A stretch of 60,282 bases of DNA, filler included, from Rhizaria sp. SCN 62-66 (taxonomy: Eukaryota): NCBI GenBank assembly GCA_001724265.1. It is 6 parts of 6 records of this genome, joined end to end, with 100 filler letters (N's around TTAATTAATTAA, not from the genome) between each part and the next. Parts side by side here need not be neighbours in the genome. Positions count along the whole stretch, not along the records: positions 1 to 9,853 come from MEDY01000585.1; 5 more parts are not named here. One strand, given 5' to 3'. The position numbers were made by a program, and so were the translations under genes. The notes under the pieces were generated by a model. The model was not told the origin of the DNA, made no database searches, and saw only the letters and a program-made list of their open reading frames with translations. This document shows, in pieces, positions 5,442 to 60,282 of this stretch (position 1 is the first letter of the stretch; each line of letters starts with the position of its first letter).

Positions 5442-7439
5442 ATGTCTCACTTACCATCGCTGCCGATGCTGCCCGTCGCTGCCGCCGGCTACGACCGCGA
5501 GCTGATCCGCTTCGTGCCGCAGTGCGATGACTGGGACTGCGGCGTCGCGTGTGTGGCGATGGCCCTGTCCCCACTCCTGCCCACGGTCACTCTCCAACAG
5601 GTCGCAACGGCGCTCAACACAGAGGTACGATGTCTCACCCTTTTAATTCAGCCTTTTACCAAAAAACGTATTTTTCATATTTTCGCATTATATCTCACTT
5701 TCAACCTGTTTGGCTTTTATTCCACTGCTTTTTACCCTCTTTTGTGTCCGCCCTAGAGCGTGTGGACAGCCGACCTCGCCCTGGCTCTCTCCAACCTGCT
5801 CCCTAGCCCCACAAAACCGTCCAACGACCCCAATGACGACGCTAACGACACAGCAAACACACAGCCGCTGCCTCTGCGCGCGTTTTCGCTTGTTTAGGAG
5901 ATCAACGCGGATTTGCAGGCCGATAAGTTCTACGAGAAGGACTGGGACGCAGACCAGCACAGGCTCGCTGCTACGGTGCTGCCCGCACTCAAACAGAGAG
6001 GGATTGGGCTTTATACCGACGAACACGTCTGCTGCGGTGACAACAACAGCACGACTGACAAGAGGACACCCAGTGACAACAATAGTAACAGTCTCCATGG
6101 TCAGAGCGACCGCGCGGGAACACGTGACAGCTTAACTTCTGTCGAGGACGACGGCGGCCACTTGTTGAGCGCGCCGGTGCCAGTGCAGCTGTTGCGCGCG
6201 CTGGGCCGGGCGCAACGGCTCAAGAAGCACACTGAGCGGGGAGGCGTTGCGATCCTGCTTGTGGACGCGAATGTGCTCTATAATGACGACATAAGTGATG
6301 ACAAAAACAACAACAACGGCGATGATGATGACGAGGACACGAGTTACGATGGTGAGGATGAGGATGCTGAGACTGAGACTGGTAAGCCTGAGACTGATGC
6401 GGCGGAGGATGAAGCGGAGAAGCGTCGGGAAAAGCATTACGGCGGTGTCTCTGACGACAACGAGGACGATAATGATACTGTTGAGGACGAGGATGAGAGT
6501 GATAGCGATGACTATGCCGGTCATTTCATCTTAGTCTTCAACATCACGACGCTTAACACAGTGCAAAACACAATCGACCGGCTTAACAAAGAGAAAAACA
6601 ACACCGCTAGTGGTGGTGGCTCTATCAGTGAGAATAAGAGTGATCCTAGCAACACTGCGATAACTGCTGCTCAGTGTGTGCATGTCAGTATCGAAGGCGC
6701 CAATGGCACTTACACGTCTTTGAAGGAGGCACTTGAGGCGTCCCCTTTAGTCGACGACTGGGTGTGGTACTTAGACCCCTCCGACGTGCCCACGGTCACT
6801 CTCAGTGGCAAGGATCTAAGTACTGTCTCACTCAGCACTGGCCGTGGCGCTCACAGTCATTCTGCTCACAGTCACTCTGCCCACGGTTCTTCTGCCCACG
6901 GTCCCTCTGCCCACGGTCCCGGTTACAGCTGTTGCGCCACAAAGGACTCGGCGCAACATGTCCCCAGTCCTGACGGTGATGACTCCGACTCAGATTCTAA
7001 CTCCGACTGTGCCACTGGCACTGGCGCTGGCGCTGCTACTGGCTCTGGCTCCGGTCACACTGCTAAGAACCCGGCTGAAAACCCGGCTGAGAACACTGGT
7101 GAAGCTGATAATGCTTCGGCCATCGACGCCCGCAGTGTGTTGTGGCGGACGCTGATGAAGATCACAGGGGGCGACGCCGAGTCCGCGCCGCCGCCGCTCT
7201 CTGCACACGCCGCACTGGCCACTAACAACAACAGCAACACCAATCACAACAACAGCAGTTGCAGCAGCAGTAACCCGAGTTTGACTGGGAGCGGGCCAGA
7301 GGCAGCTGCAGCAACAATGACCACGACTGCGACGCATTTCGCCCCGATGCTGCTGCCGCTGAAGCGGGTCACACTGGCGCAATTGGAGCTGGCGCGCGCT
7401 GTCAAGGGCACCGATTTCGATAGCATTTACATTGGCTAA
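5442..7439 (+). CDS. GUCD1: GUCD1-like protein (peptidase C39-like fold); exons 5442-5624 and 5757-7439; in-frame TAG at 5895-5897
   Basis: Motifs VPQCDDWDCGVACVAMAL, SVWTADLA, KFYEK, AILLVD, DYAGHFILV, WYLDP and ARAVKGTDFDSIYI match the GUCD1 family in order. GT-AG intron at 5625-5756. Ends in TAA. Confidence 0.85.
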
Positions 7440-8608
7440 ACAAGGTGCTGCTAGCAAACAAGCACTAAATTGCTCATGTCATGTTCCTTAGTCTTCTATA
7501 CGTATTAGATGTGCCTTCAAGCCGCTTTGTTGAGTTCTACAGCTCAGGCAACGCGTTGTGTAGTTGTGCAAGTGTTCGACCTGCTGATGGCTGAGGACTG
7601 CACTCGCGGCGGCGACTACAGCCCCGCGTTGCGCGAGCTGTTGCTGACGCACGCAGCCCCCGAGTGCAGCGGCATGTTCTCGGCCTCTGAGTTCCAGCAC
7701 CGGCTCCAGCTCATCAAGGCCGGGGACTCTGCCTGACGACGCGGGGCCGAGGACGTGGCGCGCTTTGCTCATTAAAGACGGCTGGAAAGAGGCCTTTGAC
7801 GCGTTTATTGCGCGTGATATTGAGAAACACGGCTTTTGACGACGCTTGGTGATGGATTTTGAACCCATAAACACATCTAAGTCACATCATATATTTTTGC
7901 GCCTGTGCCCGTGTTGGCCTACGGTGCGCCATCCCTGCCGGCGTAGTTTCTAATGCGCAGGCGCATACGCCATACCATATTATACAGAGCGCACTGACTA
8001 TCTACATGCCTTATCTTAATGGAATGATAACGGGCTTGACTGGTTGCCCATAGCGTGTTACATCCAAATATATCTGGTTTTGTACAGTACGGTCATCGTA
8101 GTCTGTTTTATGCTATAATTATGTTCAACCTGGCAGCTCGCTCGCCGCGCCGCGACCCCGCGCTGAGTGTCGCCAACGCGCAGGTAGCACGTTGCGCAAA
8201 AGTGATGGATTTGTTTTGTCTCATTGACAGTTGCGAAAACAGCAGTCTCGTGGGATGACACTTCGAACCGTCACACTGTAATAGTCACAAGGGCAACTAT
8301 ATTTTTGTTTTGTTTTGTTACTCGCTAAACTTAACACCTGATACGTACTACCTCATGTCAAATCTTGTACATCGATCTTCTTTGTATTTGATCTTGAATC
8401 AATTCAAAAATACTTACAACGATACAGAAAACAAAACCAAACCATAATCATAAACACACAAAAACACACTAAAGTCATGATTTCATCAACAATACGCATG
8501 GGCACACGTTGTGTGCCTGCGCGAATCTTTCAATGACAACAACAACAAAAAAACAACAACACGCCTATGCGTCACATTTGCACATGATACAACAAAGTTG
8601 GCGTGCAT

Positions 8609-8925
8609 TTACTGCTGTCCGCCGTTCTTGATGACCTGCGCAAGCTCCTTCGCGGCTGCCGCGACCTTGGCATCTGCGCTGGCGCTCCAGTCGGCCGCCA
8701 TATCGCCGACGCCCATAGCCTGCACGAACTCGTGCAGCGACACGGCGCCGTCGCTGTTGCCGCCGCCGCCGCCGCCGCCGCTGCCGTCGTCGCCGTCCGC
8801 GCCGACAATGAGCGTGCCGACGACGACGATGATGCGGTAGAGGATTGCCGCGCTGCCCGCGCTGGTGCCGTCGGCGCCGACGCCCGCGGCGAGCGCCTTA
8901 ACGACGACATTGAGCAAGTAAATCG
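8609..8925 (-). CDS. C-terminal fragment resembling the end of a PUL (PLAA/Doa1-type ARM) domain
   Basis: AILYRIIVVVGTLI...KVAAAAKELAQVI* with host-like high-GC codons. No start or splice acceptor is visible; it abuts the Sel1 segment out of frame. Confidence 0.4.
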
Positions 8926-9853
8926 TTTTGCAGCAAAGCTTTGGCGTCTCGCAAATTACGCTTAACGCCCCATCCTTCAGTCACACATTTAGCGAGCCAG
9001 TAGATGGCCTCGTCGTTGCCCGTCCGATTCACGATATCCTGCAGCATACGGGGATAGGCTCGGTCACAGGAGGCACGTTCTTCAAGCTTAAGGCTCCAGA
9101 GTCGTCCGAAGACGGTTGCCGAATAATGGGCGGGTTGGCAGACGTTGCGAAGTCTGTGTCGCTAACAGAGAGCTGCGGAGGAGGCGGACTGCGGCCAAGA
9201 ATCTTTAGCATGAAGTCGCGAGCGGCACGTTCATCGCTGGGAAGTCCGTCGATCTTCTCGCGGACAGCATCGATGTGTGGCCGGTTGTTGCTTTTAGCGT
9301 CCCAGCAGTTACGAATTAACTCAATCAGCTCCGGCATTGGCTCCGTGCCTGGCAGGAACGCGTCATTCTTCACGCCGTCAAAGTCACTAATATCAACTGC
9401 GGGCCGTGCACCTCCGAGCACTGACGTCGCAACCAAGTGGGAAGGCAGGCTGTTAAAAGGCGTAATACCAAACGCAATCTCGTACAGAGTCATGCCCAGC
9501 GCATAGACGTCTGATTTCGCCGTCTGCCGGGAGGTCAGGTTCAACAGCTCTGGTGCCATCCATCCCACCGTACCCGTATTTGACGAGACTATCGCGCGCA
9601 TGTGAAACGAGAAGATAATCAATCAAAAGGTGAGAGAAAGTTAAATAACACAAAATCAGTATTGGATATGTTTTTTTGTTATCAGAAAATTGAAATTAAT
9701 TCGTCAATATTGAACGTACCAGGGCTCACTTCCAGACTCTTCGCGGTCTCGTGGAGCTTCGAGTTGCCAAAGTCGGACACCTTGACGCTCGGACGAGTAT
9801 CCTGAGCCTCCACGCCCCAGACAAAGTTGAGCGCTTTGAGGTCACCGTGTACA
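8898..9853 (-). pseudogene. Partial TKL-type protein kinase followed by a frameshifted Sel1-like repeat (pseudogene or assembly chimera)
   Basis: VHGDLKALN, VSDFG (exon 9853-9720), intron 9719-9589, then GTVGWMAPE, SDVYALG, CW...RP. After a frame change near 9045: NDEAIYWLAKCVTEGWGVKRNLRDAKALLQ. Truncated 5' by the contig end. Confidence 0.7.
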
Positions 9854-9953
9854 NNNNNNNNNNNNNNNNNNNNNNNNNNNNNNNNNNNNNNNNNNNNTTA
9901 ATTAATTAANNNNNNNNNNNNNNNNNNNNNNNNNNNNNNNNNNNNNNNNNNNN
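9854..9953. other. Artificial contig linker
   Basis: 44 N + TTAATTAATTAA (stops in all six frames) + 44 N. Confidence 0.98.
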
Positions 9954-18295: not shown

Positions 18296-18395
18296 NNNNN
18301 NNNNNNNNNNNNNNNNNNNNNNNNNNNNNNNNNNNNNNNTTAATTAATTAANNNNNNNNNNNNNNNNNNNNNNNNNNNNNNNNNNNNNNNNNNNN
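18296..18395. other. Artificial contig linker
   Basis: Same N44-TTAATTAATTAA-N44 spacer. Confidence 0.98.
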
Positions 18396-23921: not shown

Positions 23922-24060
23922 ACACGCGAGGAACGCGTGGAACACACGCGTGACGGAACACGTGACTGACTGTGGGATGTGACTGTGAGCTGTGACTGTA
24001 CGGAGACAGGGGGGCCAGGGCCTGCCTGGAACTGACTGAGTGAGCGTGCTGCTGTGCAGT

Positions 24061-24250
24061 GCTATGCTATGCTATGCTATGCTATGCTATGCTATGCTAT
24101 GCTATGCTATGCTATGCTATGCTATGCTATGCTATGCTATGCTATGCTATGCTTGCTATGCTATGCTATGCTATGCTATGCTATGCTATGCTATGCTATG
24201 CTATGCTATGCTATGCTATGTTATGTTATGCGATGCTATGTTTTGCTATG
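24061..24250. repeat. (GCTAT)n pentanucleotide microsatellite
   Basis: Over 30 near-perfect GCTAT units between the convergent 3' ends of the CDGSH and ACL4 genes. Confidence 0.97.
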
Positions 24251-24622
24251 CTGCACTTTAAAGAACTTTCTTGTTTCCAGGTTTTCAGTGTGAGTGAACG
24301 ACGTTGTTGCGCTAATATGTATGGCTCAACCAGTGACATCGTTTTATCACACTTTATTTATCACAAATGCTGGCCCATGACTTAACAACAATATGAACTG
24401 CAATACAGTCTGATGATTGAAGAACAACAAACGAGCATTGATAGATATGAAAAAATGCTTGAATTTATGTATTACCTCCTGACTGTGCACACACACAGAC
24501 TGACCACTCACAACAACAGATGTGTGGCCACTCACCACGCGAGCCTCGGAATGCTTGCGTTCTCAGCTTACGCAACACGTCAACACCAGATTAGTCATTT
24601 TGCGCTGTCATGTAAGTCCACT

Positions 24623-32435: not shown

Positions 32436-32535
32436 NNNNNNNNNNNNNNNNNNNNNNNNNNNNNNNNNNNNNNNNNNNNTTAATTAATTAANNNNNNNNN
32501 NNNNNNNNNNNNNNNNNNNNNNNNNNNNNNNNNNN
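32436..32535. other. Artificial contig linker
   Basis: Same spacer. Confidence 0.98.
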
Positions 32536-33836
32536 AAAGTACAAACTTAACCCCTGTGGGCAAGTCCGAGGTTTCTGCATGAAGAGCAAGTCGTAGAATT
32601 GTGTAAATGCACATTTAAAGAAGGTCAGTTAGTCTACATGTTGTCCACTGCCACCACTTCATTCTAACAAATCCGAATGTTCACTACCTTTAACCTCGTT
32701 GTCATAATAATTTTCGATATCTTCATTATACATCATACTTAATTCATAAACACTATCATCACACAAAATCGCCGTCGTGTTTGTGCGCAAATGGTTAGCA
32801 ATCTCACATTGTAGTTACGTACTCTCCGACACCACCTGCCCCGTCCCTTCCGGTGGGGTTCTCAAAATATCAGTGGGTATTTGCCCCAGTGTGAGCCTGT
32901 GAGACTTGGTATTTTATGCTAAATGTCGGTTGTAACACTAAACAGGCTGCAAAAGGTTATCGAAAAGTTGGGTCGTTTCCTTAGTTAAGCGCACTATTAA
33001 AAATACATTCGTATATTACGACATAATATCACGTTAAGCCTACGAGTTTTAAATGTACACTGACCCCTTTCTTCAAACTTTGTTTTAGAAGAAGCGTCGA
33101 GCGTTCAACTCGCCCGGCGTTTTGTACACGTTTCCCCTGTACATGTACACTGTACTTCACAAAGAAGTTGTGAACTTATGCTCGTGCTGTCACTGCTCTC
33201 TCCTAAATCTCAGCCACTCGAGTCTTCTTGCTGACCTGCCACCGATCAGCCTGCGCGCGCTGCTTTTATGCTGACTTAAAGGTAGTCACAATGAGATTAT
33301 ACGTTTCTGCGCCTCTTGACGCGCTGCATAACGCCTGCGTCACTGTCAGTATCGTCACCGCTGCTCCATTGGTTGCGCTGGAGAGCGCGCTCTTGCCCAC
33401 CGCGCCAGACGCGAGCGCGAGCGCCTTGCTCATCCCGTTCGCCGTCACTGTTGCCGATGTTTTGTTCACTCTCGTCGTTGTTGCGCTGACCGTTAGCGCC
33501 GCCGCGGCGGTCACCAAAGTTGCCACGGCCGTTGTCGCCGCTGTCACTGTCGCTATCGCTGCTGGCTTGGGCGCGACCGCCTTGATTTGGCAGAGCTCCG
33601 CCGCCGTTATGCATGTTGTCGTCACTGTCGCTGTCGTCGCCGCTTTCATCTTGATCAACGTTAGCCTGGACCTGGTGAACGCCGTAGATAATGTTATCGG
33701 GAACCTGACAGTCGTCGTCGAAGTCGCGCTCGACTAGCGGGTTGTTGTCTTTAACACGCACTACGGTGTGCGTCAGACCGTCGAAGGCCTGCCGGAACTG
33801 CAGTTGCGCCTCAACGCCCAGCACGTGCCCAGTGTG

Positions 33837-35180
33837 GTCGTACATCACCTGCGGCGTGCTGGAAAAGAAGTTGACAATCTTGTTGTTGTAGACTATCTTC
33901 TTGACGGTCTGAATGATGCACCGCTGAGGCTTGCTGCCGCGCACCAGTGTCCAACATGGTCGCGGAGCCACGCCAACGGGGCGCGCCGGCGTATAACGCA
34001 TGCACTGCGTGTCCATGACAGGTTTGGCGGTGCGCTGGTAGCTAAAGCTGAGCACCCATGGTGGGTAGTTTTCTTTGAATAGTTTGTAGTTCTCCTTTTG
34101 CTCATAGTCGAGGTTGTTGTACGTCCGGGCGTCGATCGTCTGTCTTTGGTCGTGGATGAAGTAGTAACTCCGCGCTTTTTGCCTCATGCAGCAACAGCAA
34201 ACGGCGTAGCCTGCGTGCAGACAGAGGCTTGTTAACGACTCTTTGTACAGCCGTGACGCCATGTACAGTTTTGGCTTGCCCGACTTATTCAACCCATCTG
34301 CTTGATGCAAGCCTATCAGCAACATACGTGCCTGGATCTTGTCAAGCGAGTTGATTACGTGGCGTGGGATTGCGTCCTTGGACGAACTCGGCGTGGAGAT
34401 ATATTCGACATTGATCATGCGCGCAATGTTCCGGTAGTATGCGCCATGGTAGCGAATCCAGAAGTCCACAAGTGCGGGATACGTCTCACGCGTAATCTCC
34501 CAACGCATGTTGCCGCGCTCCTGCTGCCACTCGCCCAGCCAGTCCTCAACGCCCAACCACCGAAGCGTCTCGCGGATGTAAGCGATGTCAGAGCCTTTGT
34601 GCTGCTGGATAAATATGCCCCCACCTTTTGACATAGATCTGTTGCCGAGCATCATTCCGTAGAACTTCAAAAACCGAAAAATGTCTTCGCGGGTGTTGAA
34701 ACCCATCTCGGCCATCTCACGCATAAACCGCACATAGTCATCGCTCGCACAGTTGGGTACGTTTCCCCTTTTGACAGAGCACACAAATCGCGCTCGTGCG
34801 TTTTGTTGCTCCGAGATTTGCCTTGCCGTGAGCATTTGCAGCTCGCGATGACGCCAGGACCCGCCGGTGGAAATCTGTACGGGAAGCTTTTGACTTTCGC
34901 CGATAATGCCACAGTTGCGCGTTGACTGTTTGAAGTTGCCCTTAATGCCCATGTTACCCGCCCGCTTGCTCATGCGTTTTTGCGCCATTTGCGTGCCATA
35001 GGTATACGTTCCAAAGCGACGATCTTTGTGAAATGTCAGTAAGCCAGGCTTGCGCGTGAGGCTACCATCGGGCAGTATGGTGTCAAACAGCACGTTGTAG
35101 CCCAAATTTGTTAATACGCGCACTTGCTCGGCAAGGATCATGCCGAAGTTCGTATTGATTGCCGTGTCATCAAACAATCC
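33837..35180 (-). mobile_element. Degenerate intein-like region: Hint N- and C-blocks around a double-motif LAGLIDADG homing endonuclease
   Basis: GLFDDTAINTNFG (block A-like), FLKFYGMMLGNRS and ARMLLIGLHQADG...LYMASRLYKESLTSLCLHAGY (LAGLIDADG blocks), PCWTLV...STPQVMYDH (blocks F/G-like). Terminal Cys and Asn are absent. Confidence 0.65.
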
Positions 35181-35322
35181 AACGTTGCCGTCAATGTTAT
35201 TGAGCTGCAGTAGCGCTGCTAGCGCTTCCCGCACCTCCGGACTGTTCCTCTCTGCTCCTTCAAACGTGAACAAGCGCGCGAAATCAGCTTCGTCGCCGTC
35301 GACGTACTCATCACTGTTATCG

Positions 35323-35323
35323 C

Positions 35324-35359
<36 letters not shown>

Positions 35360-35545
35360 TGTTGTCGCCGTCGTCGTTGTCGTCGCCGTCGTCGTTGTCG
35401 TCGCCGTCGTCGTTGTCGTCGCCGTTGTCGTTGTCGTCGCCGTCGTCGTTGTCGTCGCCGTTGTCGTTGTCGTCGCCGTTGTCGTTGTCGTCGCCGTCGT
35501 CGTTGTCGTCGTTGTCATCGTTGTTGTCGTTGTCATCGTCGTCAT
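35323..35545. repeat. Coding tandem repeat with an 18-nt unit encoding GDDND(D/N)
   Basis: Repeated GTCGTCGCCGTCGTCGTT-type units. Confidence 0.9.
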
Positions 35546-38500
35546 TACAGTTTTTTTCGTTGCTATCGAAGTTGTCGCTATGGTAGTCATCACCGTTCCT
35601 GCCGTTATTCTCGTCGTCACCGTCAATGCCACTGCTCATATCATCGTTCTAGCGACTCTTTAACTGAGCAATTTTGACGCTAATGTTGCTTGCAACACTG
35701 CTGTGACCGTTAACAGTTTGACTAATACTAGAGTTACGGCGATTGCCTGGGTCATCAGCGTTGTTGTCCACTTCGTTGTTAGGAAGCATACTCGCTCTAG
35801 CATCGAGAACAGCCTCGGCGTTTTGACCGTGAGCAGCCTTGGCATGACGCCGCTGGGCGGGCCGGCCACTTCGGCCGACCGGGACCGCGGCGGCGACCGC
35901 GGCAGCGCGGGCAGCGGCAGCGTCACCGGCGGCGGTGGCCTGCATCTCGACAGGAACTCCTCGCGTAGCGTCGGCCTCTGGTGTCCGCGCATCAGCCATG
36001 GCGACCAAGCTTGCTGTTTTACTGACCTTCAAACCAGAGTTAACAGTGTCGAAATTGACGACATTGTTGTTTCTAGTCGCTCCCTTCTTGTTTGTGGTTG
36101 CTTTTGTGCTTGTCACAGCCGCAATCTTGAGCGTAATTGACCCCGCTTTAATTGATCTGGTTATAGCTGTTGTCAGTTGATGCTGCTCCAAAAACTCTGT
36201 TTCGACAATGCTGCTGAGAAGTTTGAATGAGGACAACGCCAGATCTGTGCACCAAAGACTGCATGTGTCGTCTGTGGTGCTGTTGAACGCATATGTTGTT
36301 GCACGATTAATATCGCGAATAACAGGATCGGCCTCCGTCGCAGTTGCCGACAGGTGAATCATAAACACAACAAACTGCTTCCGCGTGGCAGTGTCGATAT
36401 TGAAATCCTTCTGCAGCAGCCTTGCTGTGACATACGTCGCCCAAGCCAAGATATCAATGCTTTTCACAGCGTCGAGACGCGCCTTGTTGTCGAGCCGCCA
36501 ACTTAGACAATCGGCAAGCTCGAGAGCCGTTGTTATACGCTTGATCTTGGGATCGTCATCAGCTAGGATACATGTGGACAGGTTCTTGAGATGCTCCATA
36601 TTGTTTCCCTATGCGTCTGTTACCCACTGCGCCAAAACTTGCGCGCTACTTTCAAGCGCACCATGGCTGCCGTACAGCACGTTTGCGATCAGCGGCCGCA
36701 GGGCAAGCGAATCGCTTTCGGAGAAGATGCAGTCTTTCGCCATAATTAGCTTGTTAGGCATGTTGGCTCTGCGGCGTAAGTGAGGGTGAGTAATCATATA
36801 TGGATAACACTTATGCAGCACATCACTGTCACCCGAGACTGCTACGTCAACACTGTCAGCTACGTCGCTGCTGGTGGTGACATTCATTGTCGCAGTAAAC
36901 CCTGAAAACGCAATATGTTTACTGATCTCCTTTGCTGATGCGGAAAAAGCGATGCGCGCAGTTTTAACAGCTGTTGGGAGAGCTTCATCAGCCATGGCTG
37001 CAAAGTTCTTTTGACGGAGTTGCAACAGCTTTATTTGGCAACTTGCATTCGCCCGAATGTCGTCTACAGTGGCAGTAATAGCCCGAACTTTCTGCGCCGT
37101 GATTTGTGGTGACAGGACGTACAGCTTGAAACTGTCCTCACTCTGTAAATGCTTGATGATGCACTCTAAGTTTGAAGTTATCTGAAGTGCGTTAACTAAA
37201 CCCTTATTTAGTTCATCGTAGCGTTTTTTCACCTCTTCTATCTTGCGTTCAGCGAGTTCGAGCTGATTCGCAGAGTTGTGCATCTGAGACGACAGGATGT
37301 TTTTACGGAGGTCCTTATCGTGCTTCTTAGCGCGATCTAACTCGCCACGTACGACCTGTTCCACCTTCATAGCCGCCAAAACACTGTTGTAGGCCTCAAT
37401 TTTGGCGTGCTCCATCGCAAACAGCGCCCTAACCCGCGCTTCGTCTGCCTCAAAACGTGCTTTGGTCGAGTTTGCTGTCTTTGTCAATTCTTTTGCTGCT
37501 GACATTGCGAGCATAGCACGCGAAATTACTTTGTTTGACCCAATGCAAATGGTGTCTGCGCTGATCTGTAGAGTCGCTGTTGCATCACCGACGACAGTCG
37601 CGCTATTAGCTGACTGCATCTGCAGTTGCAATGCAGATGCTCGTGTGTTTGTACGCCTTGTGTTTGATGTTGTTTGCGCAGCCATATCTCTTCTACCAGC
37701 TGCTCGTTGTCGCCTGTCCGCGATGTCTTTTTTCTCCGCCTCGCGGCGCGCCAGAGTCTGCTGCTTCATTTCGTCGAGGGTGATACTGCGAAAGCGTGGC
37801 GTTTCACCGTGCGCAGCTCTGATTTCTCACGCAAGCTCGGTGTTAACATCTCGGTCAGAGTGGAAAACACGTTTCCTATGTGCAACTCAGTCTTAGGCAG
37901 CAGTCTTATTAATATTACAATTGCGGGAGCAGTGGGAGCCTTGACGCGATAAGGTGCAGCAAAGATAACGTGGCTTGTAGTGATGACATGATTTACAGCG
38001 GCAACGGCAGACGACGAACTCATCTCTGCGGCATTATCCAATTTGTCAACCTGGCACATCATATTAACATCTTCATCTTTGCCCATCTCGATCTTTGGTT
38101 GTGGGATCTGGAACTGGACAGTGAGATGCTCAGGACCGAGAAAAAGGAAAGCGTCTGTCTTGGAATCCCACGAGTTACTGCCGGGCGCCAGTGCCCTGCA
38201 GATCGCGACACCAAGCGCTGATGCTGCTTCGCATCGGCAATGTCTGTCCTTGGTGGTGTCGAGCACAGTGTAGCTTAGCCGCATTGCGTCGCGCAGTGGA
38301 ACGCGCGACCTACTGCCGAGCGACAGCGCTGCAGCCTCGACGTTCATGGTCAGCAGCATGGCGAGCGGCATGAGCTCATTGTAGGTACGCGTATTGCGCA
38401 TTGTCATGGCAAGGAATAGAGAGGTGCTTGCGGTCTCTGGGGCCACGGCAAATACAACACTTTGTGTTTTGATTTTCTTGATTCCAGCGCAGCCCTTGAA

Positions 38501-40693
38501 GGCCACGCGAGTAATGGTAGCGAGCTTCCGCGCCCAGTCCCGCTTGACTTCTAGGCTCTGGTCCTCTGTCAAGATCCGCTTTGCGAGCTTGACGGCGTTG
38601 CTTGCGTCAATGCTCTGACCAATCTCAGCACAAAAAACGCGGAGCGCGAGCAGGATGGCGACAACGTCGAGCACCATCATGTTGTTGGTGGTGAGAATGA
38701 TATGAGATTGGATGAATCCGCAGTACTTCTCGTCCGGTGGCAGCACAAAGAGCGAACTCGCGTCGGATCTGGCGGCGTGAACAGGGTCTCAGATTACCAG
38801 CCGGTTGAAATTCTCAACCTCCTTGAGGAGCTTGTTTACATACAGTTGACTGCTGTGGGCGTTTGATGACATCGTGATGGCAGCATAACGCATGTCAGCG
38901 AAGTATGTGTACATAATCTGCATCAGCTTGTTATCGCACCGAGTGTCGTCAATAATGGTCGGAAACACTGAGTTAAGGTACTCGATAACCTTGCTGCGAG
39001 CCCGCGCGTCAAATGCGGCCTTCTCTGCGAAAAGCGCCTCAGGCGTGAGAGCTGGGTACTGCTGCTACGCAAGCTTGGAGTGCGGCACGGGCAAGCGACT
39101 GCACGCAGGAATACTTAACTGAATCGGCTGTTTAAAGAATTTTTCACACACAACATTCAAAAATCGCGTTCATTATGAGAAATATTTTGGTTTTAATGCT
39201 ATTGATGCCACTCAAAATGCGAAAGAATACATGTAGAACATTTACACTTACATGTGTACATGTTTATGTACATCGATGTAGGTAGCTTACCAGTTGAGTG
39301 TTACTGTAAGCGCCAACAGGACTGGCAGCGCCAGCCGCAGCGGCACTTGCACTGCCACTGTTACTACCAGCCTGTGCACTTGCAGCGTTAGATTTGCTAG
39401 CATGGTGCGCTTCCTGGCTTAACATCACTGCTTCGCGGAGCCCCGTGACTCCACCATCACTGGTGTGACTCGTCGAAGCTACGGGTAACACGGGCGCATT
39501 GACATCAAAAGCAACGCCAAGCTCAGCAAATGCTTCCGCACTTGGGGGCCTTAGCTGCATTGTCTCGAACTGATAACCGCAACGACAGTTGCGATAACTC
39601 TCGCAGTCAAAGTCCTGAGACGGCTCGTATTGATGGCTTAGAGCAACTTGATATGAGTCGTCACCAGATTGAAAACAGACAAAATGTCTACTTTAACCAG
39701 TTTTCCGCCGATTAAACACAAGATAAAACCTACAATCAATGCAGCTGGCGACGGCGAAGCTTCTCTGTGACTTGAGATCTGCGACTTAAAGCTTCTCTCG
39801 GTGGTGGAACTTAATTCTGTCGACACAGGTGTAGACACAGCAAAGCCAAGATGCTAACTGCTGGTACGTGCAAATAATATAACTTCTTATTTGGTGAGCG
39901 TAAATTAGCGTTGTTTGCTTCTGGTCTAGGACTTTATCAGATCAGTATCGCTCAACTGTGAGAACGTTTGAGCCGTGGAAGGAAGCAACGCTTGATGTCT
40001 TACAGGAAATCACGGTTCCCAATCGACAAAGGCTGTGACCCAAAGAAAATTAATAAGAAAACAACAAATTTTACTCGAATGTAAGAAAGAAACTCCGGAA
40101 ACCCCATTTTATAGAAGATAAACAACAAAAGATCCCTGGAAAATCTTGATGTCTTCGCACTGGGCCCTTTAGGTCATCAGTGATGAAATCACGCACTAAG
40201 AAAGTGATACATCGCAGATTTTCACAATGAAAGTGTTTCGGAAAACCGAGAGTATATTTAAGTGCGTGATCTCTTTGTATTCATTAAAATATGTTTTATT
40301 TTTCAACAAATTGCCCTATATGGACAATGTATTTTTATACTAGTACAAGTAACACGCCAACAATGCGAATTTTGACGCCTTTTTATTAATAGATCTAGCT
40401 ACTACGCTCATCAGGTTGGTGATTATTTGCACGTTGTTTTATTTGAACTTTAGTTATAGGGTTAAATCCGCTGAAAAATACGTTTTAAACCGATTTCCAA
40501 AGGAAAGAGATACACCACAAATAATGGCCTCCAGCGCCGAGTTCCGGCAACTCTTTTGAACAGCGATACCATATTTTCTTCGTTTTCAAATAATTATAAG
40601 GTAACTTTCAAAAAGTTCCGCCCCCTTTTTCGGAAAGTTTCGTCAGAAAATGTATTAAAATCAGGAATGAATCAAAACAGCAGTGAATTGAAA

Positions 40694-40793
40694 NNNNNNN
40701 NNNNNNNNNNNNNNNNNNNNNNNNNNNNNNNNNNNNNTTAATTAATTAANNNNNNNNNNNNNNNNNNNNNNNNNNNNNNNNNNNNNNNNNNNN
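40694..40793. other. Artificial contig linker
   Basis: Same spacer. Confidence 0.98.
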
Positions 40794-48116: not shown

Positions 48117-48671
48117 GAGAGAATGAACCCGGTGAGTCACTGTCGTGTCGAAGCTGTGTGATAAGCTTAAGGCTTAAGAATTTCTTAATCGGCAACACAG
48201 AGACACAACTCGATAGACAACGCAGACCGACAGAGTATGTAAACACGAAAAACGCTCGGTGAGTAAAGTTAATGGGCTATGATCCAATCAACGTCATTTG
48301 CTCTCAAACGGATTTGCAATGATGACTCGTTCGTCATGTCATCTCTTCTGTGTCACAACAAACTAAAAGATACGAGCTACAATGTAAGGCTTACAAAGAA
48401 TATGTGCGAATCAATACTTCAAAATAACAACACAAACAACAACACCATAAATAAACACTAAATAGTCTTTAATACCTCTCATCGAACATCCGTGCCATCC
48501 TGTGCGTGAAATGGTGGACAGGACTGATCGCACCACGCACTACACGACAACAACAACAAAAACCAAAAAAAAAAAACTTGTCGACTGCAGACCCTAACGC
48601 TTGAGCACAAAGGTGTGCCGCAAAAAAAAAAAGCAGTCAAGCTGCGGGGTGTGACCAAAAAAAAAAGAGAG

Positions 48672-48744
48672 AGTCCGCGGTGGGGATCGAACCCACAATC
48701 TCCTGCTTCGTAGGCAGACACCTTAACCATTGGGCTACGTAGAC
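48672..48744 (-). tRNA. tRNA-Arg(ACG)
   Basis: GTCTACG TA GCCCAATGGTTAAGGTG TCTGC CT-ACG-AA GCAGG AGATT GTGGG TTCGATC CCCAC CGCGGAC T, followed by a T-run Pol III terminator. One A-C mismatch in the acceptor stem. Confidence 0.92.
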
Positions 48745-48930: not shown

Positions 48931-49030
48931 NNNNNNNNNNNNNNNNNNNNNNNNNNNNNNNNNNNNNNNNNNNNTTAATTAATTAANNNNNNNNNNNNNN
49001 NNNNNNNNNNNNNNNNNNNNNNNNNNNNNN
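48931..49030. other. Artificial contig linker
   Basis: Same spacer. Confidence 0.98.
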
Positions 49031-52000
49031 AACAGTGCACGCAAATGGATTACGCAAGATTTCACAAGATTTCAACAAGATTTCAGTGACGTCACGAGGT
49101 TTGGGCCAATCATACGCGAGTGTTGTGGTGTGACAAATAGGACAGGAGTCACGCTTAATGTGGCCAACGCACCATTAAAGCATTGCATTTTTATTGCATG
49201 AACAGCAAGCGCAGCTCGAGCGGAACCGAACGACGGTACTTGGAACGCTACTTGACGTCAGGATCAGGTGCGGCGACGCTTGACACTCATCAAACTGTGC
49301 TCAATGGGCGCCACGTCTGGCAGCTCAAGCGCAGCCTCGCGCAACGACTCGAGCGCGCCATTCAACGCCTCCGCCGCCAGTGACTCGGTGCTACCATCAC
49401 CAAGGTCGTCGTCTCCCTCCTCCTGCACCTGGACGTCATCATCCTCTTCCTCGTTTGCCGCATCTTCTTGGCCCTTCTTTAGGTAATCGTTGTACGCGGT
49501 CATTTTTTCGCGCGCCTGCTCCGTTACCCACTCCAGGCAAACCGGACAGCCTGAGGATGCTGCGCACGCGGTATGCGCCGAATGGCGACAGGAAAACCGA
49601 GTGGTCTCGGCCCAGCTGGGCGAGTCGCACACCACACATGGAGCATCACCCGAAATCTCTCGCTGAGAATGGTGCGCACGATGTGTGAGTGTCGGTGTCG
49701 TCAGTTTCGTAGATTCATCATGCGTATCACGTACTTTTTGTTTGAATGCGTAGGCGGGCGGATGAAGTGTTCCCTTGGCGTCAATGTCGTGAGTCGGCCA
49801 TCGATATCCTGTCCTTGTGTTGTTCTTGGGGCTTCTAATGATGGTTGCGACCTGCTTGGCCTGGTACCGGCGGAGCATCTTGTCGAAGAGCGCGACCCAA
49901 TATTGGCCCGCGCGAATGCTCTGCGCAGTCAGGTTACTCACCTTGTTGCGCCTCGCCTCCTTACTTCCATAGATGGCCGCAAATGCTGAGGACGCCCGAT
50001 CCTGTGAGAGAAGGCATCCAGCCTGGCGGACGCTCTCGGCGGGGGACCAGTCGGTCGTGGCGCGGCGCATCCACGAGTGCACGTGCTCCACAGCGTACTC
50101 ATCGGCGCCCGCGAGGCCCGCTTCAAGTGACAGGTACACCGGGTGGAGAGGATGGGCGGGGTCACGCCACTCGGCCAGATGCGCCAGGAACGCTAACGGC
50201 AGTCGGACGTAGTTGCGTCGGCGCCAGGCGAGGAAGACGATCCACGATCTGCGCAATGCGTTAGAAGCGCTCTGTAAGGTATTGTCATTCTCGCGCGCCT
50301 CAAAACAAACTCCTCGTAGACAGCTAACTTGTTCGACCGCTGGACGTTGGCGTAGACGTTCAGGAATGTCGGCAACACTTCCTCCAACAGCCAGACGAGG
50401 GTGTCAACCTCCGCGTCAACAACGGTACGACACTTGCTAACAATTACGTCGCGAATCTCCCGCCATCCCACTAATGCGATCTCCAGAACGCAATGCATTC
50501 TGTGCGCGTGCGGTGCCTCGGGCAGGTCGCGCCCATCGACAGCGCGCCAGAATGGCTGCCACACCGGTAAGTACATCTGGTACGCGTCCTCGATTCCGTT
50601 AAGCGCCAGGTGCAGGGGCCCTAACATGGGAACGATGCGTTGCAGCCAGCACCGGTCCGCCTCCTTCGCGTTGTGCACAAGGTACGTACCATATTTTTGG
50701 CCCGGATTGTCTGCGGGCATGAGGACGATGTGGTCCTTCAAATGTGACAGCAAGGCGGGCGTTTTTGCGACAGTGGCGCGAAGCACGTTGAGGTAGTCGT
50801 CGTGTGATTTTAGAGGCATTTGTTGTACGTCCAACACAATAACCCCTTCCATAGCGCGCGACGGACTCACCTCGTACGTGTGCGTTTGCAGCCGCTCTTC
50901 GACAGTTACCCGTTGTTCTTCGACAATAAAAGTAGACAAAAGGCGCTGAAGCGTAGTAGTGGAAGAAGCATAAACGAAAGTGCTCTTCAGTCGCTCTTCG
51001 AATGGCCCCAAAGATAATTTTCCCGTAAAGCGAACCTCTGGAGGGATCGCGATGGCTGCCACTGATGGGACTGGCTTAATGCACACGGTCGCAAAGAATT
51101 TGCCGTCAGCCTTCAAGTTACGCCTTTGCTTTCTAGGAACAGAGGAAATGTTCATTGTGATTAATGTCAGGAAGGCCATTGCATAATTTGTATTGGAATG
51201 GAAAAAACAACAAAGTTACGCACACAATCCCATGGATCGCGGTATAATCGTCGATATAAAGGTTCATCATCACTCCCGCGTTGTCCCGGAGTGCACGATC
51301 AACCCAAGCAGGATGATTTTCCATACGCTCGTGCTGAAAACGCCGCAAGGTATCAATGGAAACTGTTGCTCCAATAGCATGCAGCATCTCCAAAGCGCGG
51401 TCGCTCACGCCGAAACGGTCGAGCGCGCTGGCGAGCTCCTTTTGGAAAGCATTGGCATGGCTTGACTGGCTGTACGCCAAGTGGTAAAGCGTGGCCAAAG
51501 TGCGCTGAGGCCTGCTCGTTTCAAATGTGGTAAAGAGGTCCGCAAGAAGAGGGTCCTTCCTCATCTCGGTTTTTAAAGAGTCTGGGTCTGTAAACAAGGC
51601 TGATTTGCGGAGAAAGTGGTAGAGGGCATTCAATCGTGCGCGTGTCTCGCTCAACCAATCTGCAAAAATAACAGCGAATGTTGTGAGACAAAAATGGATA
51701 TGTTATCATTAAATTGGCTAAAGCGCACCGGAAGAAGCGCGTGCGGGCGTCGCAACAGGGGGCGCGCTTCCAGCATCCGTCGTGAGAGCATCGCACGCTT
51801 TGCCGTCATCAACATCATCGTCTTCATCTTCACTGTCTTTAACGGGGCGCAACACCGTACGCCTCACCGATCGCGACAGAGTCTTGTAGTGCCTATCGCA
51901 CAAGTGCTTGGTTGGGCGTAGGTCCCACAGGGCAACTACCTCGAGCGGCCGCTTTTTAATGAAGGCAGACGTCAGCTCGCGCAGCACGCCACTGCATTCT

Positions 52001-52339: not shown

Positions 52340-53713
52340 ATGGAGGACGACCTGGATGCCGAGCTGGCGAATGTGGACGTTAGCAATGTGCAAATGAACC
52401 TGGACGACCTCGATCTCGACGAGACGCTTGGTCTCAGTCCGTCGACGTCGCGCGCGCCCATGCATTCGAGCACGCCTGCCGCCAAGCAGCCGGCGCAAGT
52501 CGAGCCTCGCGCGGCATCGCCCCTCGATCCGAATGCGCCGCCGCAGTCAGCGCAGGCCGCAGATCAGTCAGCGTCCTGGTGGGGTAACATCTGGACCGCC
52601 GCTTCGACGGTCGCCTCGACGGCCGCGTCCAATGCCGTCACTGCCGCGTTCGTCCTTGTCGCTTGTGTGGGAGATTGGCTAACCTTTGCGTGCGTGATGG
52701 CAGGTCGACGATCGCCGCTCAGAACCCCGAGCTGACGCATGCGCTCGACAATGCGCGCAAGAAGATCGAGAGCGGGTCCGAGCGGCTTCGCGAGCGCGTG
52801 GCCGATGTCGCCCGCACGACGGCGACGCGCACTCTGGACGGCGTCGAGAAGCTGCTCGACGTCATCGATCCCATCCAGCTCTCACAGTACGTCATGGGCA
52901 TCTTTTGTCGTCCAATAGTATTTTTCTAGTGTTGTAATAGGTCGAGTGCTCTTGTTTATTTATGAATGTGGTTTGTTAATTGGGCAAAATTGGTTCTTTT
53001 CATTCTTATTTCACGCCAAATTGCACCAATTCTTGGCTTCATTTTGTGCCTTTTCCTTTCGTTCCCGCCGCGTTCCCGCCACTTTCCATCCCATATTCTA
53101 ACCCTCTCTCCTCAGGGACGGCTCCGCCACCCTTTTCTCGTTTGAAGAGTGGGTCGGCGTCAAGGACGACCCCCGCGTCAAGATCCTCGTGTGCACGCTT
53201 GACCCTGCCTTTTTCGCCGCCGCCTCGCTCGCCTTTGAGCGCCTCCACGGCGACGGCTCCATCTACGTGCGCGGCCTCGCCTCCGACGCCGACGCCGACG
53301 CCGCCGTCTCCTCCTTTGCGCCGAGCCTCGCCGCCGCCGCGCAGTCCGCCTCTGAGCGCCTCGACCGCGTGCTCGCGCTCCCCGAGAGCCAGCGCCCGCC
53401 GGACGAGTTCATCATGGTGACCATGGTGCCCTTCCTCGCCGACATTGCGTCGCAAACCTACTTTGGCGTGGCGGCGATGCTGCACGACGTGCGGTGCAAG
53501 GTGCGCGTGTCGTCGTTCTCGCCGCTCGTGCAGGTCGAGCGGCACGCGCTGCCCGAGGCGCCGCGCACGTACGAGTGGTTCGCAGAGGCTGTCGACGGGC
53601 AGTTGAGCGTCGCAGAGGTGCTCGATGCCGCCATGCAGGCGCTGCTGGGGGCGTACTGGCACAAGCAGAGGCAGGCGGGGCTCGTCCAGGAGGAGGGAGA
53701 CTGGAAGGAGTAG
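52340..53713 (+). CDS. Hypothetical protein, three exons (about 52340-52648, 52704-52886, 53116-53713)
   Basis: Strong GC3 bias. GT-AG introns join MEDDLDAELAN..., STIAAQNPEL... and DGSATLFSFEEW...EGDWKE. Ends in TAG. Confidence 0.65.
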
Positions 53714-54001: not shown

Positions 54002-54867
54002 CTAGTCGCCCGTGGACATGATGACCTGGCCGGGCTGCACCTCCTCCTTGACGACATTAAAGAAAGTGACCAGTACAAGCAAAATCATAATAATGGACAC
54101 TATAGCAATGGTGAGACCGAGTCAAATAAAGAGGCAAATAACGCACCGACAGAGTACTTGATAATGTCGAGCTTGCTGACCTCGATTTCCGTCTTGAGCT
54201 CGGACAGCTCCGCCTGCAGCTTGAAATTCGTCTCTGCGATCCCCCTCTCGTGCCTCTTGTGGTCGTCGCGCATCACAATCTTCATCGTATTCAACTCGAT
54301 ATTCATATTCGTCCTCAGCGTCGTCAGCGCCTCCTTGATCGCCTGGTCGACCGTGACGATCTCGCGCTCCAGCTGAGACAGCTCCGACTTTACACCCAAA
54401 AATTCGCTCTTTTCCTGCAGCCGAAGCTCGTTCCGGACGCTCTTTAGCTCTGCGTCGTAGAGGATTCGCGTGATCGCGTAGCTCGTTTGCGTGACAATCT
54501 CTTCATCAAGCTGCTGAGACCTGCCGCGGGGGTGAGTTGACCAGAAGGAGACAAGGAGGAGAGCGTACCGAACACGCAAATGATGCGCAATTGCTTTTGT
54601 TAATATTTCCGCTTGTGGCCGCGAAAAAGACTGTTCTAACCGCGTCTGCAGCTTGTGCGTGTCAAAAAGTCCCGGTCGGTAAATGTCAAACGACGCGGGC
54701 GCCTGCGACGGCTTGGGAATCGCGGCGGCCGTTCCAAGAGGCGGCATCGCGGCGCTCGCTTCCATCGGCGCCGCCTTCATGGTGAGCGAGCGCACAGAGC
54801 GCAGTATCGAGGTCCGGCACGGTTGTGAGAGGAGCATCCCGCACGGACGCCGCAGCCACTGGCGCAT
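54002..54867 (-). CDS. DUF1640 / CCDC90-MCUR1-Fmp32-like mitochondrial coiled-coil protein with two introns
   Basis: Arg-rich presequence, FDTHKL...FSRPQAE, coiled coil, IEVSKLDIIKYSV, then a TM last exon SIIMILLVLVTFF...TGD*(TAG). Confidence 0.8.
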
Positions 54868-56008: not shown

Positions 56009-57322
56009 ATGGCACCACCACGTGGAGGGCAGCGGCGGGATCGGCCGCGCGCCGAGCGTGCACCGCTTGACCCGGAGGCGGCCCTGGAGGCCGCAGAGGA
56101 GCTTGAAGAGGGCATTAACCGCCATGTTGGCGCGCAGTCCATCCGCGCGGCGCAGCGCGCATCGGATGCCTATGCTGCCGTTGAGGCCATGCCGGCGGCA
56201 TCGCCCAAGGATCGGTGGACCGCCGTCGTCGGTCGGTTCGTCCATGCTCTTGCGCCATCCCTTTTCTAACTGTTTTCTTTTAGCGCGCGCTGCTGGCAGC
56301 ATATTGGCGACACGACGTCCGTTGCCGCCGAGAGCCTCTCCTCCCTTTCCCTTTCCCGTGATCTGTTTGCATCTGCGCTTTCGGCCGACGGCTCCGACTG
56401 GGACGTCTGGTACAATCACGGCCAGGTTTGTTCATCCCTCGCCGAAGCGCGCTCGCCAGACACTTCCGCACAGCTTTCTCTCTACCTCGAGTCGCTCTCG
56501 TCGCACCGCCGCTGCGATGCGCTCCTTCAGGTCCCGAACTCGCCCCTTGCCGAGCGCGTCGACTGCCTCGTCGCGGGCGGCCTGTCCGCATCCCACGCGT
56601 CGGTCCTTTCCGCCGCGCCGCAGTCGCACGAGCTGGCCTCGCTGAGCGACGAGCTTGTGTCTCTCGCCCTGTCGGCCGCGTCTGCGTGCGAGGACGCCTC
56701 GCGCGTTCCGACCGTGCAGCTCTCCTGGGCCGAATCGCTTCTCGTCCGCGCCGCCGCCGCCTCCCCCTCTGACGCACCGGCGCACTTCGAGCGCGCGCTT
56801 GAGCTTCAGTCGCTCGCGCTGCAGTCGCCCGACGTCGACCCCGTTTCGGCGCTGTGCGACCGCACCGACGCCTCGTACAACTATGCGACGCACTTGGCCT
56901 CTCCCGGCGACCCCTCCTCTGCGGTGCTCCCCCTCGAGCGTCGCCAGGCCCTCGCCGACGGCGCCCTTCGCGACATTTCGAACGCGATCCAGCTCAAGGA
57001 CGGCGACCCCGCGATGCTCTCCCGTCTCGGCGACGTGCATCTGCTGCGCTTCCACCTTGGCGGCGGCAATTTGGCACTCCACGAGGCCGAGCGCGCGTAC
57101 GTCCGCGCCATGTCGGTGCCATTCAAGCCGCTCAAGGACGCCGACACGCTGCACAACCTGGCGGCCACGTACGCGCTGGGCGGCGACGCTGAAAGATGTG
57201 TTGCCGCGCTCAGGGCGTGGGCAGAGGTGGCGAGCGAGCAGGACAGGGAGGAGATGAGGGCCGACGAGGATTTCGCGAGCGTCAGGGGGACGAGCGCGTT
57301 TAAAGAGATCGTGGGGGAATAG
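56009..57322 (+). CDS. TPR-like helical repeat protein (intron-containing)
   Basis: DASYNYA and DTLHNLAATYALGG...EEMRADEDFASVRG-type TPR C-terminal cap. Ends in TAG. Confidence 0.65.
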
Positions 57323-57808: not shown

Positions 57809-60282
57809 ATGGAGGAGCGAAGGAGCCGCGAGGGGGGGAGATCACTCGCCGTCCTGCTCGTTGGTGCCCTGTTGGCTAGTTTGTTTGTGCAAGGTGCGAA
57901 TGGGCGCGGGATTTCAGAGAATGCTGATGTGGTCGCTCCACAGCCGCACAAAGCGCACGCGTAGACGCAATCGATGCCACCTACACAAGGTCGTCCGACC
58001 CTGATACGATCCATAAAAACGTTGAGCTGTGCTATGATACGTGGTTTCTTTTTATTCCCGTGCCTATCTGTGATTCCTACACATTTACGCAAGGCAGTGG
58101 GTCAGCACCAACGAGCGTCGCCTACTACAAATTCAACCTCGCCATTCAAACGGTTCGTTTATAAATATATCAATTGCTACTGACTCATAATGCTTTAGTC
58201 CAATCCTGCGCTCTTTTGCGCAACAGGCACACCGCGGTTATACCTCAGCTATGTGTCGACGGAACCTTCAAGCTTGAGAAGCAATGTCATAGTCGACGTA
58301 CCAAGGGTCCCAGTGTACGTTGTAATATTTCATGCGATTGCTTTATTGACTTGAGATGCAGCAACTTTACAACGGTGACATGGAATAATCAGCCTCCACT
58401 CGATGATTCCGCCGCGCGCGTCAACGCCGGATACACTGAGTGCGCATGTGCGTTCACGGGTTTCGTAGTCTAACATCCGGTTCACAAAGCGAGGGTGATT
58501 GGTACTATTCTGTGCCTTTGACGCCGCCAGACTTTCTCAACACCGCCGTTCGCCAATCGAACAGCGCGGTGCGTTTCCGCTGTGTGATTGAGGCGACATT
58601 TTAACACGACGATTGTCAAGTAACCATTCGAAATTTCTATTCGCACGACATCAGTGTGTTGTGGGAGACGCATGTATCCCGCAGTGGAAGATACAAACCA
58701 TTCCTGTCGTTTGACTACACCACGTGCGATCCGAATGCGACATGTACCAATGGCGCGTGCGTCTGCAACCAGTATTACAGCGGCTCCGAAACGTCGTGCA
58801 CCTGTACGCGCATCCCGCACATCATATGTTACTAATGATAATTTCAAGATACCGCGTGCAATGGCATCACCATGGGCAACGCGAACTTTTCCCTGACAGA
58901 GTCCGACACGACCGCCAACGGCACCTGCTTAAGTGGTTTTACTGGATCGCCAACAGCCGTTTGCAACAACAAAGTCTGGGGTGCCGTGTCCAATCCTTGC
59001 ACTCGTACGCACATCACGCGATGTTGCGTTTGCTGACATGCAATATAGCTTCATCATGCCCCGCTGACAATACAAGCCATGTCGGCAGCGCAACCTATCC
59101 GCTAACAAACGGTGGTGAGTGGGCAAATGGAACATGCCTTTCGGGCTATGCGGGGTCTGCTACTCGTCGGTGCCAAAGCGACGGCGTGTGGGCGACTTCA
59201 GCCTTGACATCGTGCACTCGCCTGCTTTGCGAGGCGACTACAATGGGCAACGCCTACTTTCCAGATACGGATAGCTTGACGAGCGGATATGGTACTTGTT
59301 TTACCGGCTATTCGGGATCTCCTTCAAGCAGCTGCTCTGCGTCGGGCACGTGGGGCGAAGTTACTTCGCCTTGCGTTCGTACGCGCCGTTGTTGTTGTTT
59401 TTAATTGACCTCTAATGTTGTCTTTTGTAGGAAACACGTGTGACAGTTTCGCCGATTCCTTGAACAATGTCATCTGGCCCCAGACCTCCTCGCTCACTAC
59501 TGCGGTTGGCACGTGTTCCTCTGGCTTTGAAGGTGCACCGGAGCGCGAATGCTTGGCATCCGGTGAGTGGTCGCCGCAGATATCTGGTGAGTGCGTTTCC
59601 CTTGCGTGCCCCGAGGATTCCTTGTTCCAGAATGCCGCATGGCCATCGACGAATGGAGGCTCTTATGGTACTGGCGTTTGCATCGCCGGGTACTTTGGGT
59701 CGCCGCAGAGACAGTGTCAACTTGACGGCACGTGGTCGTCGACGGTTTCGCCAATTTGCAATCGCTACTATTGCGTCGCCGGAACGTTTGATAACGCAGC
59801 ATGGCCGGCAAACACGCCTTCAATGACAACGGCCACCGGCTACTGCGTTTCCGGCTATACCGGCACTCCTTCGCGCGCCTGTCAAGCTGACGGCCAATGG
59901 GCATCGACGGTGACCAATCCATGTGTGCAAATGTTCTGCCCCGTCGCGCAAGAATCCTTCGCTAATTGGCCGCACACGCCCGCCTTTTCCAAGTCTGTGT
60001 CTGGCGAGTGCATTTCCGGCTACAGCGGCAACCCTACGCGCGACTGCAGCGCGTACGGCGATTGGCTCGCGGTGTCAAATCCTTGCACGATTACCCGCTG
60101 CGCAGCCGTGACGGAAGGCAATGCCACGTGGCCGGCCGCCGACGCGTTTGCCATGGTTTCCGGCGCATGTGATGCACAGTACGTTGGCAGTCCGAGCCGC
60201 ACGTGCGGCCCCGACGGCACATTCGGCGAGATCATCAACCCATGTCAGCGCATCACGTGCCCTGCAGGCGTGGCGGGCAATG
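57809..60282 (+). CDS. Secreted or receptor protein with tandem Cys-rich (Sushi/HRM-like) repeats; many short introns; 3' end runs off the window
   Basis: Signal peptide (SLAVLLVGALLASLFVQ). About 57-aa repeats of the form G.C..GY.GSP.R.C...G.W....NPC....C......NA.WP.T. This repeat style is typical of unicellular holozoan receptor kinases. Confidence 0.75.

Follow-up and report, generated by a model that had tools for sequence, protein, structure and literature searches.

Nuclear genetic codes in which UAG alone has been reassigned are documented in PMC5304391 for one rhizarian and one fornicate outside the ciliates. In the rhizarian exLh, UAG is reported to be read as leucine: 71 transcripts hold 384 UAGs in frame, the terminators being 56 UAA and 15 UGA. 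The same report has UAG as glutamine in Iotanema spirale and UAR as glutamine in Amoeboaphelidium (PMC5304391). A first-pass annotation of the DNA considered here had invoked UAG=Leu in a rhizarian and UAG=Gln in a fornicate as background, and PMC5304391 agrees with it. Beyond the lineages in that report, our literature search, at the level of listings and abstracts, returned no other GC-rich organism outside the ciliates in which UAG alone is reassigned. Against this background we analysed a GUCD1-like gene that carries one TAG in its reading frame.

The window, by which we mean the whole 60,282 bases of DNA analysed, is not one stretch of a genome. It consists of six contigs (C1 to C6) joined at five linkers, each of them a pair of 44-N runs around TTAATTAATTAA (Table 1). 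Open reading frames and statistics that cross the junctions are therefore artefacts, and the contigs need not share one genome. All six look eukaryotic, with GC-rich coding regions against AT-rich spacers and introns. A proteasome exon had a best identity of 66%, with 61-64% to plants and early fungi, in a search restricted to proteins of at least 276 aa. Stitched windows of several contigs may combine different genomes.

Table 1. Contigs, linkers and features, with positions counted along the window.
Feature	Position	Strand	Remarks
Contig C1	1-9853		
Contig C2	9954-18295		
Contig C3	18396-32435		
Contig C4	32536-40693		
Contig C5	40794-48930		
Contig C6	49031-60282		
Linkers	9854-9953, 18296-18395, 32436-32535, 40694-40793, 48931-49030		N44-TTAATTAATTAA-N44
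GUCD1/C39-like gene, exon 1	5442-5624	+	61 codons, phase 0, DWDCG motif; translation, ATG at 5442
Intron 1	5625-5756	+	132 nt, GTACGA...CCCTAG, GC 0.37; form as in six other introns
Exon 2, start	5757-5894	+	46 codons, SVWTADLA...LPLRAFSLV, coding up to the TAG; translation, BLASTP
T-rich tract and TAG/G, acceptor-like	5880-5897	+	acceptor PWM; CTAAC at 5842-5846 (by eye)
In-frame TAG	5895-5897	+	codon 108 of the spliced frame; Pro in relative P0003
Open codons after the TAG	5898-7436	+	513 codons; GGVAILLVD, GHFILVF and C-terminal LELARAVKGTD common to P0003
TAA terminator	7437-7439	+	C-terminal position same as in P0003
Introns on C1, C3 and C5	5625-5756, 9589-9719 (-), 21590-21825 (-), 23156-23342, 27744-27852, 30109-30349, 47647-47846		
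Orphan ORF on C4	33297-37826	-	1,509 codons with TAG read as sense, ends in TAA; in-frame TAGs at 36609-36611 and 35649-35651
In-frame TGA on C4	38789-38791	-	just upstream of the orphan ORF, in continuous coding-like composition
tRNA-Arg (ACG)	48671-48744	-	only tRNA in the window; ARAGORN and Rfam
DUF5427-like gene on C6, TAG end	53711-53713		
CCDC90-like gene on C6, TAG end	54002-54004		47-nt intron restores the expected hydrophobic tail (by eye)
TPR gene on C6, TAG end	57320-57322		

Several other features were recorded along the way. Near the GUCD1-like gene, a small ORF (MAEDCTRGGDY..., 7585-7850, plus strand) seems to be continued past a TGA in a different frame (...WRALLIKDGWKEAFDAFIARDIEKHGF), and no intron is evident at the change (both by eye). 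The C-terminal half of a protein kinase with a 131-nt intron occupies 8609-9853 on the minus strand and runs off the contig end; downstream of it lie a Sel1-like stretch and a further GC3-rich ORF, in other frames. A TGCTA pentanucleotide array at 24060-24252 (38.8 copies, 94% matches) is locally the source of many off-frame TAGs. On C6, three abutting ORFs in different frames (49264-51702, minus strand) have by eye the appearance of a single transposase-like gene; they gave no family match, and the middle piece is found on 6 contigs of up to 44 kb. A Cys-rich repeat protein with weak HRM, Sushi and Ephrin_CRD matches (58715-60281, plus strand) contains a 52-nt intron and is cut short by the contig end.

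From position 5757 the frame of the GUCD1-like gene reads to ...LPLRAFSLV, meets the TAG at 5895-5897 and continues with EINADLQADKFY. The first-pass annotation had described the TAG as in frame and followed by about 510 codons up to a TAA, which is what we find, the count being 513. For about 455 of these codons there is no in-frame Met, the first lying near the C-terminus (translation, by eye), and GC3 is 0.68 before the TAG and 0.72 after it. The donor and acceptor form of the intron at 5625-5756 is common to six other introns on C1, C3 and C5.

Both sides of the TAG resemble GUCD1/PF09778 (Guanylate_cyc_2), a C39-like papain-fold family, through weak matches that fall where the profile would place them. 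Exon 1 (positions 3-35 of the 212 in the profile) scores 23.4 bits and the part after the TAG (positions 114-145) 21.3 bits, while exon 2 with TAG read as L scores 25.4 bits; scanned singly, none of the pieces reaches the gathering score of 28.1 bits. Exon 1 has weaker Peptidase_C39 and C39_2 matches in Pfam as well, and the nearest Atlas clusters, a lead only, are GUCD1 and C39 families (0.85-0.87). By eye, DWDCG is seen in exon 1 and GHFILVF after the TAG; we take the Cys of the former and the His of the latter to be putative C39-like catalytic residues. The protein differs from the family in its acidic and low-complexity inserts, which make it over twice as long as is usual there.

Just one relative was found, P0003 (397 aa, with PF09778 as a precomputed domain), which matches in BLASTP with 68.9 bits and an E value of 7e-17, the C-termini aligning too. 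Across the stop the alignment is ungapped: LPLRAFSLV-TAG-EINADLQADKFY stands against LPLRTYSAL-P-GVNDGLKDEKFY, so that a Pro of P0003 is aligned to the TAG. The nine residues before the TAG align in register with a BLOSUM62 score of 27. Among 96,130 stop-free control 9-mers taken from all six frames of the window, none but the site's own reaches this score. Since the residues on both sides align to P0003 without a gap, splicing out the TAG would cut conserved residues. The TAG had been placed at a conserved Leu-like site; the conserved coding segment stands, but the leucine given for animals and plants is not confirmed; the only relative retrieved has Pro there and thus indicates no particular amino acid for the TAG. 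The stop codon really does interrupt a conserved region, and the gene is intact apart from it.

Copies of the gene tell the same story wherever they are on record. A search of 5.8 billion cluster representatives returned only the protein itself and P0003, and no copy with a sense codon at the TAG site among representatives of 308-980 aa. With phmmer, 1.84 billion representatives gave six matches: the gene's own product twice (P0002 and P0127), P0003, and three others that are weak, multi-stretch matches in long proteins. A metagenome scan for the GUCD1-like gene found only an identical contig (L001; 1411/1411 bases, TAG included), the genome contigs searched yielded none, and a sequence search of the PDB gave only low-complexity matches with E above 1. 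The ORF that follows the TAG is on record in three variants with single-residue differences, on 5 + 1 + 1 contigs, all of which begin at the first start codon downstream of the TAG, and a 45-aa ORF with its end at the TAG is on record as well. For the GUCD1 ORF the record includes a contig of 28.5 kb. The TAG is shown to be present in every copy on record, and its occurrence in three haplotypes, on 7 contigs, follows by inference.

Elsewhere in the window, 14 confident coding segments on C1-C3 and C5, together 8,081 codons, are free of in-frame TAG, TAA and TGA alike. No sense codon is found fewer than three times in this set, the rarest being AGA (3), ATA (5) and CGA (7); TAG, if it is a sense codon, can therefore be no commoner than the rarest of these. 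The 11 terminators on C1-C5 are TAA in eight cases, TGA in three and TAG in none. An Amoeboaphelidium-type code (UAR=Gln; PMC5304391) is rejected because TAA ends 8 of these 11 genes. No tRNA(CUA) was found in the window, the single tRNA being Arg-ACG, nor was there an eRF1 gene among the Pfam matches of the window. A codon-usage log-odds scan for in-frame stops discriminated poorly, with false positives from antisense frames.

On C6 the terminators are TAG in three cases and TGA in two, with no TAA, so that TAG ends 3/5 genes there against 0/11 on C1-C5 (Fisher p = 0.018). Across the TAG of the TPR gene, GC3 drops from 0.85 to 0.47, which indicates that this TAG is a terminator. Introns shorter than 60 nt are also confined to this contig in our sets: 4/6 (47, 48, 52 and 56 nt) compared with 0/7 on C1, C3 and C5, where the minimum is 109 nt (p = 0.021; Mann-Whitney p = 0.035). 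Tetranucleotide correlations of C6 to the other contigs are 0.62-0.74, and those among the others 0.75-0.84. C6 has the same unusual donor form, GTNCG, and similar codon usage, and the RSCU correlation fails to separate it from C2 and C3 (0.87-0.88). We consider that C6 is probably a related second genome, and its TAG stops accordingly weigh weakly against a code change in C1.

With TAG treated as a sense codon, one further long ORF appears in the window, the orphan ORF on C4. Neither of its two TAGs has an acceptor-like context. Two of its pieces (386 and 316 aa) recur without change, each on 7 recorded contigs. The whole 1,509-codon ORF gave only a low-complexity match in a homologue search, nothing in viral contigs or PHROGs, and no Pfam match, the C-terminal part having none even at E 10. 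For that part the Atlas offers LAGLIDADG-like clusters (0.90-0.91), a lead only, which Pfam does not support. C4 is the codon-usage outlier among the contigs (RSCU correlation 0.63-0.83 to the others), and the reading frame upstream of the ORF switches near 37770, where TGA and ATG overlap as ATGA (around 37768-37771). Given the outlying codon usage, the frame switch and the in-frame TGA, C4 could be a decaying selfish element or come from another genome, so that it carries little weight either way; its ORF may or may not belong to the same genome as the GUCD1 contig. The block at 33297-39290 (minus strand) also holds a long Asp/Asn-rich repeat and, by eye, a likely GTAAGC...TAG intron at about 39065-39290.

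We give roughly an even chance to a standard code and a recent premature termination codon in this GUCD1/C39-peptidase-like gene. A single-base change, for example from TTG, CAG or TCG, would recently have created the TAG. Translation would then stop after 107 residues, and the product would retain the Cys-bearing N-terminus and lack the half that holds the GHF His block. The 513 downstream codons would still be open only because so little time has passed since the mutation, and some transcripts, a minority, may escape termination if the TAG serves as their 3' splice site. New genetic codes are far rarer than single nonsense alleles. Arguing for this explanation, the TAG is real and within coding sequence, none occurs in 8,081 codons in which each sense codon is found at least three times, and the relative has Pro at its column. 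Haplotypes that differ by single residues point to a young population, in which an ORF need not yet have decayed. The contig of the other TAG-bearing ORF has outlying codon usage, an in-frame TGA and a frame switch, as fits a decaying element, and three genes on C6 end in TAG with an abrupt drop of the coding signal. The lack of tRNA(CUA) within the window and of readthrough-type structure downstream of the TAG (z -0.41) fits as well.

Counter to this, all three in-frame stops of the two long ORFs are TAG, and neither ORF has a frameshift. TAG terminates none of the 11 genes on C1-C5, and C6, which differs in stops, introns and tetranucleotides, may owe its TAG terminators to another genome. 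The long open stretch after the TAG, with all conserved blocks intact and mostly devoid of in-frame Met, also speaks against it, and no sense-codon copy came to light among the cluster representatives searched.

Alternatively, UAG may be decoded as an amino acid (Leu, Gln or another), with UAA and UGA kept as stops, a reading that we hold only tentatively. It would amount to early-stage or low-frequency capture of UAG by a tRNA with anticodon CUA. The organism would be an uncultured, GC-rich eukaryote with GTNCG...TAG introns in which TAG was lost as a terminator and is returning as a rare sense codon, a scenario that is possible but doubtful on present evidence. Consistent with decoding, every recorded copy has the TAG within a conserved segment of a gene that is otherwise intact, and two more TAGs interrupt the 1,509-codon, TAA-ending ORF on C4, whose recorded pieces are unchanged across contigs. 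No TAA or TGA stands in frame in these two long ORFs or in the 8,081 other codons, and TAG is missing from the terminators of C1-C5. The density, however, is very low, with 1 TAG in 620 GUCD1 codons and 0 in the 8,081 others, set against the abundance of UAG in exLh. The aligned residue in the only relative is Pro rather than Leu, the C4 ORF may be of another genome or a decaying element, three C6 genes end in TAG (if C6 is of the same genome), and the window contains no tRNA(CUA). With 11 terminators and TAA-rich usage, the absence of TAG stops is only mildly unexpected.

The inference of a nuclear code with UAG=Leu rests on one codon. A change from TTG to TAG takes one nonsense step. Both readings would therefore lead one to expect a stop at a Leu position, and for the same reason they cannot be told apart by a lone in-frame TAG at a Leu-like column. 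From 60 kb we cannot tell a code change from a recently broken gene.

A less probable explanation, which we regard as unlikely, is that the TAG is the last triplet of an intron at 5625-5897, whose removal, be it constitutive or a rescue of a nonsense allele, would drop 47 codons (46 sense codons and the TAG). We enumerated every GT/GC/AT...AG/AC pair that encloses the TAG. In exon 2, GT donors upstream of the TAG lie at 5760, 5762, 5819, 5882 and 5892, and among all pairs no frame-keeping intron around the TAG spares both SVWTADLA and the residues conserved with P0003. The sole in-frame option is 5625-5897, which deletes the whole conserved segment. The full enumeration thus upholds two statements of the first-pass annotation, that no phase-0 GT donor removes the TAG and that splicing of 5625-5897, at 273 nt, is in frame; its caveat that TTGTTTAG resembles a 3' splice site is confirmed by the acceptor PWM. 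One candidate intron, 5819-5897 with a GTCCAA donor, was rejected: its 79 nt do not keep the frame, which then runs into a stop (partly by eye).

The acceptor-like context makes it conceivable that 5897 serves as a 3' splice site with the donor at 5625. Its PWM score is 4.6, just below the weakest of 13 inferred acceptors (4.9-16.3), although the matrix was built from these same 13 sites and their own scores are thereby inflated. The site ranks in the top 20 of 1,669 AG sites within coding sequence, and 15-mers with at least 8 T, like the one that precedes it, are rare there (112/30,338 coding 15-mers). A CTAAC lies about 50 nt upstream (by eye), and the length keeps the frame. In our small intron sets, inferred partly by script and partly by eye, 9/13 introns end in TAG after a pyrimidine tract, as do 6/7 on C1, C3 and C5; the splice signals of these seven are unusual, with GTACG donors in 6/7 and GTCCG in 1/7. 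Against such splicing, the segment that would be skipped comprises SVWTADLA and the nine residues homologous in register to P0003, and this homology implies that it is coding now or was until recently. GC3 is coding-like on both sides of the TAG, and a good acceptor, 5756, lies upstream of the skipped segment.

Programmed readthrough of UAG by a near-cognate tRNA, which would give a full-length protein in an organism with the standard code, appears very unlikely. In its favour, the downstream ORF and its conserved blocks are intact, and a G follows the stop. From the TAG onward, however, 100 nt fold no better than shuffled sequences (69/200 at least equal), the UAG-GAG-AUC context matches no readthrough motif known to us, and readthrough has no evident use in the middle of a catalytic domain. 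That a sequencing or assembly error made the TAG is hardly credible: the assemblies on record may share raw reads, but the separately deposited contig is identical at every base, all three protein variants on the 7 contigs start after the TAG, and an ORF that ends at it is on record. Only a sliver of probability falls outside these five readings.

Looking across the known systems, the locus is like exLh and Iotanema (PMC5304391) in having an in-frame UAG in a conserved gene and UAA and UGA terminators on the same contigs, with TAG at 0/11 on C1-C5. In exLh the UAGs fall on conserved Leu columns; here there is one codon in a conserved gene, with Pro in P0003, plus two to three further TAGs in an orphan ORF and none in 8,081 codons. 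Many UAGs in conserved genes, on columns of one amino acid, as in codes of the exLh and Iotanema type, are not seen in this window.

If UAG is decoded here, the organism would add a lineage outside the ciliates to those with a UAG-only reassignment, seen near its origin, with the codon returning in weakly codon-biased genes. A further lineage of this kind in which the codon is still rare would open to study the order in which stop loss, tRNA gain and eRF1 changes occur. If the TAG is instead a nonsense allele, the case is an ordinary one. It has the features of a premature termination codon in a recently disabled gene: a single stop that one base change would turn into any of several sense codons, a gene intact elsewhere, and low sampled diversity. 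Unusual but possible for such a gene are the presence of the stop in every copy and a second ORF that is also interrupted by TAG only.
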